64,000 bases of DNA from Escherichia coli. GTDB lineage: Bacteria; Pseudomonadota; Gammaproteobacteria; Enterobacterales; Enterobacteriaceae. The stretch lies in NCBI RefSeq assembly GCF_013315695.1, contig NZ_CP054353.1. One strand, written 5' to 3'. Each line of letters opens with the position of its first letter. Positions within the stretch are counted from its first letter, which is position 1. The notes under the pieces were generated by a model, which was not told the DNA's origin, did no database searches, and saw only the letters and a program-made list of their open reading frames with translations. A program made the translations under genes and the position numbers. Positions 44,148 to 45,170 of the stretch are shown one piece after another.

Positions 44148-44342
44148 TTACAGCAACTGGTGAGGGCTGGCATAAGTTGCCGGTGTTTCGGTAGAGTCAC
44201 GGCCATCCACCACGCGGAGTGAATAACCGTTTTCAGCGGCCTTATTAATCAGTTCAGTGATATTAACACCATCAATGTCAACGACAATGTGCCCCATATC
44301 CAGCGCCTGTACGTTAACGCTGTCGGCTTCCAGTGTCATCAT
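44148..44342 (-). CDS. yeeW: YeeW/YkfH/YpjJ-family small prophage protein
   Basis: 64 aa, start overlaps the cbtA stop. Position downstream of cbtA is as in CP4-44. Confidence 0.8.
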   Translation of the reverse strand: MMTLEADSVNVQALDMGHIVVDIDGVNITELINKAAENGYSLRVVDGRDSTETPATYASPHQLL

Positions 44343-44713
44343 TTCGCCTCCGGATACTTACCCAGGGTAATGTTATTTACCGTTCTGTAATTGTCGCGGG
44401 TCATCAGGCCGGTCGCCCTGCGAGCCCGGAGGATATCGATGCTGTTTATTAACTGAGAGCGGGTACAGGCGCTGAATCCCGGCTGGTCGGTACGCACCAG
44501 CGCGTATTTTTCCACGAGAAAGTTCACCGCATCACACAGTGAAATGCCTGCCTCAATATGCTGCTCAATCACACGTTCATCGGCAAACGGTGTGTCATTC
44601 AGTGTGAGGCCGTAGTGCTGGTCCAGCAGTCGGGACAGCAGTATCTGCCAGATTTCAACAGGAGACGGGCGAGAACTGGCCGCCTGCCCGGGTAATACAG
44701 GTAATGTTTTCAT
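44339..44713 (-). CDS. cbtA: Cytoskeleton-binding toxin CbtA (YeeV)
   Basis: 124 aa, MKTLPVLPGQAASSRPSPVEIWQILLSRLLDQHYGLTLNDTPF.. Full length. Confidence 0.93.
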   Translation of the reverse strand: MKTLPVLPGQAASSRPSPVEIWQILLSRLLDQHYGLTLNDTPFADERVIEQHIEAGISLCDAVNFLVEKYALVRTDQPGFSACTRSQLINSIDILRARRATGLMTRDNYRTVNNITLGKYPEAK

Positions 44714-44801
44714 ACTGAAGATTTTCCTGATATGCAGATATAAAAATGGGAAAGTGGCGTGGTGAAAACACCAGGCCGTAGCAGAAGGCTATTCTGGAGA
44801 G

Positions 44802-45170
44802 TTAATTTTTCATTTCGGGCGTCGGATAAACAGCCAGATAAACGTAACCACAACTGCTGAGGGTATCGGCTTCACAGGCCAGCCCCTTCGCATACAGCGT
44901 GACGGTATGCTGAGTGCGGGGATTCAGTTCACCGCTGGTGAGCATGAGTTCCAGTTGTTTCATCAGCAGCGGAAAGGCCTGGTCCAGGGGGTACGCATCT
45001 GCATCGCTGGACAGGCCTCTGATACCGGCGCGGTCGGCAAGGTAATGCAACCGGTTACCCTCCTGCACCAGACGTGCCCCGAAACAGGGCGTCACGGTGC
45101 AGGGCAGCCCCCACTAGGGGCGGTCGTGATTGTCGTCGGGAAGTGTTGTCCCGGGGAGTGTGTCTGACAC
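44802..45170 (-). pseudogene. cbeA: Antitoxin CbeA (YeeU) with amber codon at position 19
   Basis: GTG 45170: MSDTLPGTTLPDDNHDRP, then TAG (45114..45116), then WGLPCTVTPCFGARLVQEG.. in the same frame. A 97-codon ORF remains from GTG 45095. Confidence 0.8.

Follow-up and report, generated by a model that had tools for sequence, protein, structure and literature searches.

The 64,000-nt stretch of Escherichia coli contig NZ_CP054353.1 analysed here (the window, 64 kb) carries a copy of the type IV toxin-antitoxin (TA) module CbtA/CbeA (YeeV/YeeU) in which codon 19 of the antitoxin gene cbeA (yeeU), a Trp codon in intact alleles, is an amber stop (W19am). The toxin gene cbtA (yeeV) next to it is intact. 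The TAG allele is confirmed as a real, heritable W19am nonsense allele of the antitoxin gene, and it recurs in E. coli from many sources. We conclude that it is probably a nonsense allele produced at a Dcm methylation site, which drifts in the population as a tolerated null or hypomorph and is neither regulated nor suppressed.

The codon-19 amber in cbeA and its recurrence

On the minus strand, cbeA starts at GTG 45170, with a Shine-Dalgarno (SD)-like AAGGA 6-8 nt ahead of it (pairing energy -5.9 kcal/mol), and meets an in-frame TAG at 45116..45114, which is codon 19. The translation from GTG 45170 is VSDTLPGTTLPDDNHDRP*WGLPCTVTPCFGARL..., and the codons before the stop are GTG TCA GAC ACA CTC CCC GGG ACA ACA CTT CCC GAC GAC AAT CAC GAC CGC CCC. 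The DNA around the stop reads CGC CCC TAG (45116..45114) TGG GGG CTG CCC TGC ACC GTG (45095), and GTG 45095 continues with ACG CCC TGT TTC. Codon 19 is Trp in K-12 YeeU (PDB 2h28, in the motif RPWWGL) and TGG in the DNA of K-12 and of strain D8. The original prediction had placed the amber at the same codon and coordinates and had assigned a Trp (TGG) to K-12, which agrees with the crystallized protein and makes the difference a single G-to-A change. It also listed an intact 124-aa cbtA and a 97-aa open reading frame (ORF) from GTG 45095 to a stop at 44802, both of which are present. The features of the module are as follows.

45117..45170, minus strand: head of cbeA, GTG plus 17 codons (MSDTLPGTTLPDDNHDRP), an 18-codon mini-ORF after the mutation
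45114..45116, minus strand: amber TAG at codon 19, Trp TGG in intact alleles
45114..45118: former Dcm site, now CCTAG, with CCTGG in TGG alleles (from a scan for sites in the alleles of K-12 and the window)
44802..45095, minus strand: 97-aa ORF from GTG codon 26, candidate restart product (PF06154 positions 9-100)
44802..45107, minus strand: 101-aa coding sequence (CDS) with a CTG start, as annotated by the Prokaryotic Genome Annotation Pipeline (PGAP) in near-identical genomes (WP_128857213.1)
45050..45064, minus strand: internal AGGAGG (45059..45064) and in-frame TTG (45050, codon 41), found by anti-SD energy
44714..44801, minus strand: cbeA-cbtA spacer, 88 nt (from the sequence)
44339..44713, minus strand: cbtA (yeeV) toxin gene, intact, 124 aa, identical to K-12 CbtA (PF06755, 195 bits)

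The cbeA gene lies directly upstream of the PF06755 toxin gene within a yeeS-yeeT-yeeU-yeeV-yeeW array. Its nearest TGG allele, that of D8, differs at 2 of 411 aligned bases (the TAG/TGG base and one in codon 86), and the window CbeA is 93% identical to K-12 CbeA over 122 codons, with seven amino-acid differences besides codon 19. The PF06154 domain covers CbeA residues 18-117, and scores 169.9 bits in the read-through translation and 155.4 bits in the 97-aa ORF (cut-off 27). The frame leading from the native start through the PWWGL motif and the domain core is broken by the TAG, and the gene as it stands is not an intact member of the family. Intact homologues from several genera are 118-124 aa long and keep PWWGL ahead of codon 26, while residues 1-17 differ between genera. 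The stretch ahead of codon 26 is thus coding in intact alleles, contrary to the possibility, raised in the original prediction, that full-length homologues commonly start near that codon. Translation from GTG 45170 would stop after 18 residues, so that full-length CbeA would not be made.

A 61-mer centred on the TAG has a full-length match at 100% identity in 29 complete RefSeq E. coli genomes (34 records at ≥99%), which answers the question whether the TAG recurs in cbeA alleles of other genomes. For comparison, 3,672 genomes carry the 61-mer family in any allele, ∼3,180 further records (K-12 included) are one base off the TAG version, and the wild-type 61-mer, the denominator, has an exact match in 3,865 records. 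The allele frequency is below 1%. The carriers come from humans, pigs, poultry, a giant panda, river and surface water, soil and a cave, and the two 101-aa products closest to that of the window are found on 282 and 229 public contigs by exact look-up. A sequencing or assembly error in the window genome was rejected as an explanation of the TAG, its probability being negligible given that 29 independently produced complete assemblies, as well as hundreds of draft contigs, have the identical allele, and that the near-identical genome of isolate AF3 has the same base.

RefSeq already lists W19am as a shortened CDS. PGAP calls it a valid 101-aa 'type IV toxin-antitoxin system YeeU family antitoxin' with a CTG start at codon 22 (products WP_128857213.1, WP_071792336.1 and WP_044863316.1); this CTG has an SD spacing of 0, which is not a usable one. 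Other gene callers start the TAG allele at GTG26 (97 aa) or TTG41 (82 aa, 254 contigs). Depending on whether CTG, GTG or TTG is taken as the start, one TAG allele stands in the databases with three N-termini (giving 101, 97 or 82 aa), none of them backed by evidence. The early amber at codon 19 carries no pseudogene flag, unlike mid-gene ambers in paralogues.

Probable Dcm-site origin and haplotypes

In TGG alleles, codons 18-19 (CCC TGG) contain the Dcm site CCTGG (nt 53-57 of K-12 and D8 cbeA), which in W19am has become CCTAG. The altered G pairs with the inner, methylatable C of CCAGG on the other strand. Dcm methylates the inner cytosine of its site on both strands, and deamination of 5-methylcytosine gives a T:G mismatch that becomes a C-to-T change if repair by Vsr fails (PMC2715241). 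Deamination of the template-strand 5-methylcytosine at CCTGG, missed by very-short-patch repair, would turn TGG into TAG, and this is the most likely origin of W19am, judging from the position of the changed base. The location of the change in a Dcm site would also explain the presence of the same stop on different haplotypes.

Eight nonsense changes in cbeA can be reached by a transition, and seven of them were searched (Q87am was left out), with the following results.

W19am, in a Dcm site: 29 genomes at 100% (34 records at ≥99%), several backgrounds
Q64am, in a Dcm site: 20-22 genomes, several loci
W19opal, outside a Dcm site: 0
Q36am, outside a Dcm site: 0 of 8,042 places
Q72ochre, outside a Dcm site: 0 of 12,183 places
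W20opal (TGG TGA), outside a Dcm site: 4 genomes, IAI39 among them
W20am (TGG TAG), outside a Dcm site: ∼25 complete genomes

Q64, a CAG within CCAGG, is the sole other position in cbeA where a Dcm-derived stop is possible. Its amber was predicted on this ground and then searched, and a 38-mer carrying it was matched at 100% in 20-22 complete genomes. The four Q64am loci compared (CCAGG to CTAGG) represent at least three paralogous islands (near capsule genes, near yghD and elsewhere); all four are annotated as 'internal stop' pseudogenes, and an intact gene for a CbtA-family toxin adjoins three of them. Q64am and W19am are thus alike in having an amber at a Dcm-derived position of the same family, usually beside an intact toxin gene. 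They differ in that the Q64am stop lies mid-gene, where no functional product is possible and PGAP calls a pseudogene, whereas W19am is annotated as a valid shortened CDS.

The non-Dcm transition nonsense changes are rarer than the Dcm ones, or clonal. W20am, at codon 20 like W20opal (window equivalent 45111..45113), was considered as a counter-example to the Dcm explanation and set aside, since the three carriers compared (L73, IMT16316 and 2D) have an identical module haplotype and flanking proteins, and share a one-base deletion that frameshifts cbtA. These three of the ∼25 carriers fit a single clonal event in a lineage whose toxin would already have been dead. PGAP gives the W20am and W20opal alleles the same accession (WP_044863316.1) as the K-12-like W19am allele, and this shared accession hides the difference between them.

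Deamination at Dcm sites is a classic route to amber hotspots in E. coli. Amber hotspots at Dcm sites of lacI were reportedly described by Coulondre et al. in 1978, and Lieb is said to have shown in 1991 that the lacI Dcm-site hotspots are limited by Vsr very-short-patch repair. The cbeA case resembles these in its ancestral CCTGG, in the inner-cytosine C-to-T change (here of the template strand), in its amber product and in its occurrence on different haplotypes. Unlike the laboratory-selected lacI mutants it is a natural polymorphism across genomes, and it changes TGG (Trp) rather than CAG (Gln); further differences are that the synonymous change of the opposite strand was not found at the cbeA site, and that methylation here is deduced from the sequence.

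The number of origins was addressed by comparing 10 W19am carriers with 8 controls (TGG or other alleles) over the 1,318-nt yeeT-yeeW module and the core flank. One group of carriers (AF3, FDAARGOS_1373 and MS21-1) has a module with 0-2 differences from the window, its nearest TGG allele being that of D8. The second group is K-12-like (JE86-ST05, ETEC1738, OW1E2, KH_005, the panda strain and E2), with 17-25 differences per 1,318 nt from the window-like group. The variable positions that flank the TAG most closely, 45195 (80 bp upstream) and 45010 (105 bp downstream), both separate the two groups, and public data contain all four combinations of W19 or amber with N86 or T86. Over the dacD-sbcB flank (2,751 nt) the carriers fall on five backgrounds, 33-55 nt apart. 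The sampled alleles include a TGG sibling for three of the five, and none for the ETEC1738 and KH_005/panda backgrounds. Two siblings were compared over dacD-sbcB (E2 and W5-6 differ by 1 nt, OW1E2 and K-12 by 0 nt); the comparison with D8 is limited to tmaR-yeeA, where D8 is identical to the window over 2,201 nt. These haplotypes suggest that W19am was either produced by mutation at least twice, or moved between haplotypes in a recombination patch shorter than 185 bp.

The JE86-type haplotype has five differences within 28 nt of the 3' part of cbtA (window 44414..44441). All five are synonymous, the product having the accession and translation of K-12 CbtA, and this cluster looks like a short gene-conversion patch from a paralogue.

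The intact toxin beside a broken antitoxin

The original prediction saw a conflict between an inactive antitoxin and an intact toxin, and supposed that the toxin might be silenced in another way. The broken full-length frame stands, and the need for separate silencing is largely dissolved by deletion data from K-12. CbeA does not bind CbtA but counteracts it indirectly, by stabilising FtsZ and MreB assemblies (PMC5624674). In K-12, growth is unaffected by single deletions of the antitoxin genes, cbeA included, and by the triple deletion of the paralogous antitoxin genes (PMC5371832). The three K-12 TA loci have low transcript levels, and neither partner of a CbtA/CbeA-type pair autoregulates its operon (PMC5371832). 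The paralogues YafW and YfjZ neutralise CbtA (Wen et al. 2017, PMC5371832). Since the antitoxins can be deleted in K-12 and the paralogues cross-neutralise, the pairing of an intact toxin with a broken antitoxin calls for no special explanation, and the apparent TA paradox is largely resolved by the published K-12 data. By extension from K-12, loss of CbeA would be tolerated because of its indirect action on FtsZ and MreB, the weak, non-autoregulated transcription and neutralisation by paralogues. A truncated CbeA from GTG 45095, or lower cbtA expression through polarity or through the upstream insertion sequence (IS) of the IS3 family, might contribute as well, and would not be required.

Comparisons among wild strains point the same way. 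The median number of such modules per E. coli genome is three, and four places in AF3 match this module; within the 64-kb window no module of this kind was found besides cbeA-cbtA. The cbtA gene is intact in 9 of the 10 W19am loci compared, and there is accordingly no sign of compensatory toxin decay. The exception, E2, has a cbtA frameshift that is also present in the type strain ATCC 11775. The Q64am pseudogenes beside intact toxin genes display the same tolerance.

The cbtA frameshift is a one-base deletion outside a homopolymer (GGTGC-TACC, window equivalent 44493). It is common to ATCC 11775 (TGG), E2 (W19am) and the W20am lineage, and toxin-dead versions of the module therefore also circulate.

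Several points weigh against a tolerated, neutrally drifting Dcm-site allele. Independent origins are unproven, as a recombination patch shorter than 185 bp could have carried the TAG between haplotypes. Among the K-12-like carriers both the module and the 1 kb next to it are identical, so that these carriers may go back to a single origin that recombination has spread. At the Dcm site of the amber, the synonymous sister change (P18, CCC to CCT) was found in none of ∼3,660 genomes, against 29 with the amber, which a neutral, strand-symmetric hotspot would not predict, although the independent events are few; together with the retention of the toxin in 9 of 10 carriers, this absence is left unexplained by a simple neutral hotspot. 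The tolerance data come from K-12 under laboratory conditions, a strain other than that of the window. Finally, the conserved ORF after the stop shows no decay, with few substitutions among the carriers, and a functional restart product would account for this as well. The P18 contrast may simply reflect the small number of independent events. At Q64 the result is the opposite, with the synonymous sister (CAG to CAA) in 66 records and the amber in 22, and given these opposite results and the few events no inference on selection is drawn.

The alternative that survives best, though we regard it as rather unlikely, is that the allele is functionally maintained, with a restart at GTG 45095 giving a 97-aa CbeA that still protects against CbtA. 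Such a protein would lose only a disordered N-terminal tail and the WWGLPCT segment, and its maintenance would explain both the intact ORF and the intact toxin. GTG 45095 is in frame, 18 nt past the TAG, and the 97-aa ORF retains PF06154 positions 9-100 of 101 (155 bits). Residues 1-17, apart from varying between genera, have a predicted local distance difference test score (pLDDT) below 50 in an AlphaFold model, in which the first strand spans residues 30-37 and all strands and helices come after residue 30; the model as a whole has low confidence (mean pLDDT 62.6), which weakens this argument. The K-12 YeeU crystal chains have 104-109 modelled residues of a 130-residue construct, the ordered range being judged from chain lengths. 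The working antitoxin YfjZ, with 105 aa, begins four residues before the aligned position.

YfjZ (CP4-57) and YafW (CP4-6), both 105-aa paralogues, share the Pfam family and fold of CbeA (PDB 2ea9 and 2jn7) and neutralise CbtA. They are without the long N-terminal tail of CbeA, showing that most of CbeA residues 1-14 are dispensable for the fold. In contrast to the product of GTG 45095, they keep the WGL motif and are complete genes with their own start codons. The loss of WWGL from the 97-aa product counts against its function, as the motif is conserved across genera and in YfjZ.

Translational restarts after early nonsense codons are known from lacI and T4 rIIB, and cbeA resembles these in its early stop, an in-frame GTG within 18 nt and a G-rich, SD-like run before that GTG; it differs in that its restart is only a candidate. 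After termination, ribosomes can scan >40 nt and reinitiate at the first start codon that follows an SD-like sequence (PMC5972666). A GGGGG run lies ahead of GTG 45095 (-8.4 kcal/mol against the anti-SD), but its distance of 11 nt is a poor spacing. The strongest internal site is instead the AGGAGG (45059..45064) 7-8 nt before the in-frame TTG41, where the predicted pairing is better than at the native start (-10.8 versus -5.9 kcal/mol); initiation there would give an 82-aa product without strand 1.

The distribution of stops bears on the restart in both directions. Early stops are seen at codons 19-20 in three alleles (29, ∼25 and 4 genomes) and Q36am and Q72ochre never, as would be expected if a downstream restart were useful. 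However, Q64am alleles, for which no functional restart is possible, still stand beside intact toxin genes, the toxin of the W20am lineage is dead, and K-12 survives full antitoxin deletion. Because Q64am occurs beside intact toxins and K-12 tolerates the deletion, a function of the shortened protein is not needed to explain the survival of the allele. The 97-aa restart product from GTG 45095 is plausible but unproven.

An improbable alternative is that the codon-19 amber is positively selected, retuning CbtA activity, for example toward biofilm or stress phenotypes, through a leader and a weakly restarted antitoxin, or through antitoxin loss; its recurrence would then come from ease of formation at the Dcm site combined with a selective advantage. 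This would accommodate the 29 amber genomes on several backgrounds against none with the synonymous change at the same site, the intact toxin in 9 of the 10 carriers compared, and the 2-4-fold increase in early biofilm on deletion of antitoxin genes in K-12 (PMC5371832). The independent events are too few for statistics, however; at the Q64 Dcm site the synonymous sister is commoner than the amber, and one carrier (E2) is also toxin-dead. With a frequency below 1%, and with close TGG siblings sampled on three of the five backgrounds, the pattern resembles recent drift more than a sweep. We likewise give little credence to the related proposal that the Dcm site is a one-way mutational switch, which would convert cbeA into an 18-codon leader with a restart-coupled, shortened antitoxin, or leave no antitoxin. 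If it were true, the CbtA:CbeA balance would be shifted, and biofilm or stress behaviour changed, in natural E. coli lineages.

Suppression of the amber, also offered in the original prediction, is very improbable. A suppressor tRNA of the supE or supF type, or UAG readthrough, would still yield full-length CbeA. In the 64-kb window the only tRNA genes are three for tRNA-Asn(GTT), none with a CUA anticodon. The supE44 allele of glnV has exact matches in 155 records, and the 60 listed are all K-12 laboratory lineages, none of them a TAG carrier. W19am itself occurs in diverse, unrelated wild isolates, which makes a shared suppressor implausible. An amber suppressor would also read through many genes ending in TAG.

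The locus and the biological meaning of the allele

The module lies at the CP4-44 locus, with cob genes on one side and tmaR/yeeA/sbmC on the other. It shares with the K-12 CP4-44 CbtA/CbeA module the position by tmaR/yeeA/sbmC, the order yeeS-yeeT-cbeA-cbtA-yeeW, a CbtA that is 100% identical, and the 88-nt spacer between cbeA and cbtA (PMC5371832). Unlike K-12, the window has the TAG at codon 19 and an island cut by an IS3-family element; compared with intact CP4-44-type islands it is reduced, agn43, yeeR and neighbouring genes being absent. The neighbouring features are as follows.

44148..44342, minus strand: yeeW (DUF5983 N-terminal domain, by Pfam), overlapping the cbtA stop
45244..45465, minus strand: yeeT (DUF987, by Pfam)
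45528..46004, minus strand: yeeS (RadC/JAB, by Pfam)
46020..46484, minus strand: antirestriction gene (by Pfam)
46497..47710, minus strand: IS3-family element, 12 bp upstream of the antirestriction gene (by ORFs and comparison with intact islands)

The 88-nt spacer and the weak SD of its own that precedes cbtA indicate that cbeA and cbtA are not coupled by overlapping start and stop codons. A scan of the minus strand between the two genes found no sigma-70-like promoter site, which is weak evidence. Stretches rich in C and poor in G follow the stop; they would allow Rho to load, and prove nothing. The IS3-family element (46497..47710; also 47711..48950) encodes a programmed-frameshift transposase, replaces the agn43/DUF932 part of the island and has the orientation of the yeeS-yeeT-cbeA-cbtA array. 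Because it lies upstream in this orientation, transcription of the array in the window strain may depend on read-out from the IS.

From position 6718 onward, the gene order of the window is that of E. coli isolate AF3 (NZ_OZ547117.1), and the two collinear sequences have 8 mismatches in 57,283 nt. AF3 is a UK blood culture isolate with an O1-family O-antigen cluster. The window also has an O1-family O-antigen cluster (wzx, wzy; ∼8967..19017), and lacks the IS1A insertion that splits wcaM in AF3. An intact yefM-yoeB pair is present at 30676..31178. Between dacD and sbmC (39206..40963) lie a ClbS/DfsB-family gene and then an ISEc53 (ISL3-like) transposase gene, an insertion that is present in AF3 and MS 21-1 and absent from K-12 and most other loci compared. 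The three tRNA-Asn(GTT) genes (52680..52755, 55089..55164 and 56913..56988) lie around nac, cbl and yeeO; tRNA-Asn genes are the usual integration sites of asn-tRNA islands, and none of the three is directly adjoined by an island in the window.

Taken alone the finding is ordinary and carries little weight, being a tolerated nonsense polymorphism in the antitoxin gene of a cryptic prophage. It is also a clean natural example of a Dcm-site amber hotspot across thousands of genomes, in which the prediction of a Q64 amber held. It exposes an inconsistency of annotation, in that one allele is given CTG, GTG and TTG starts while mid-gene ambers of paralogues are called pseudogenes. The occurrence in the wild of a broken CbeA with a CbtA identical to that of K-12, whose toxicity is experimentally proven, supports the laboratory result that type IV antitoxins of this family are not needed for survival of their own toxin at native expression.

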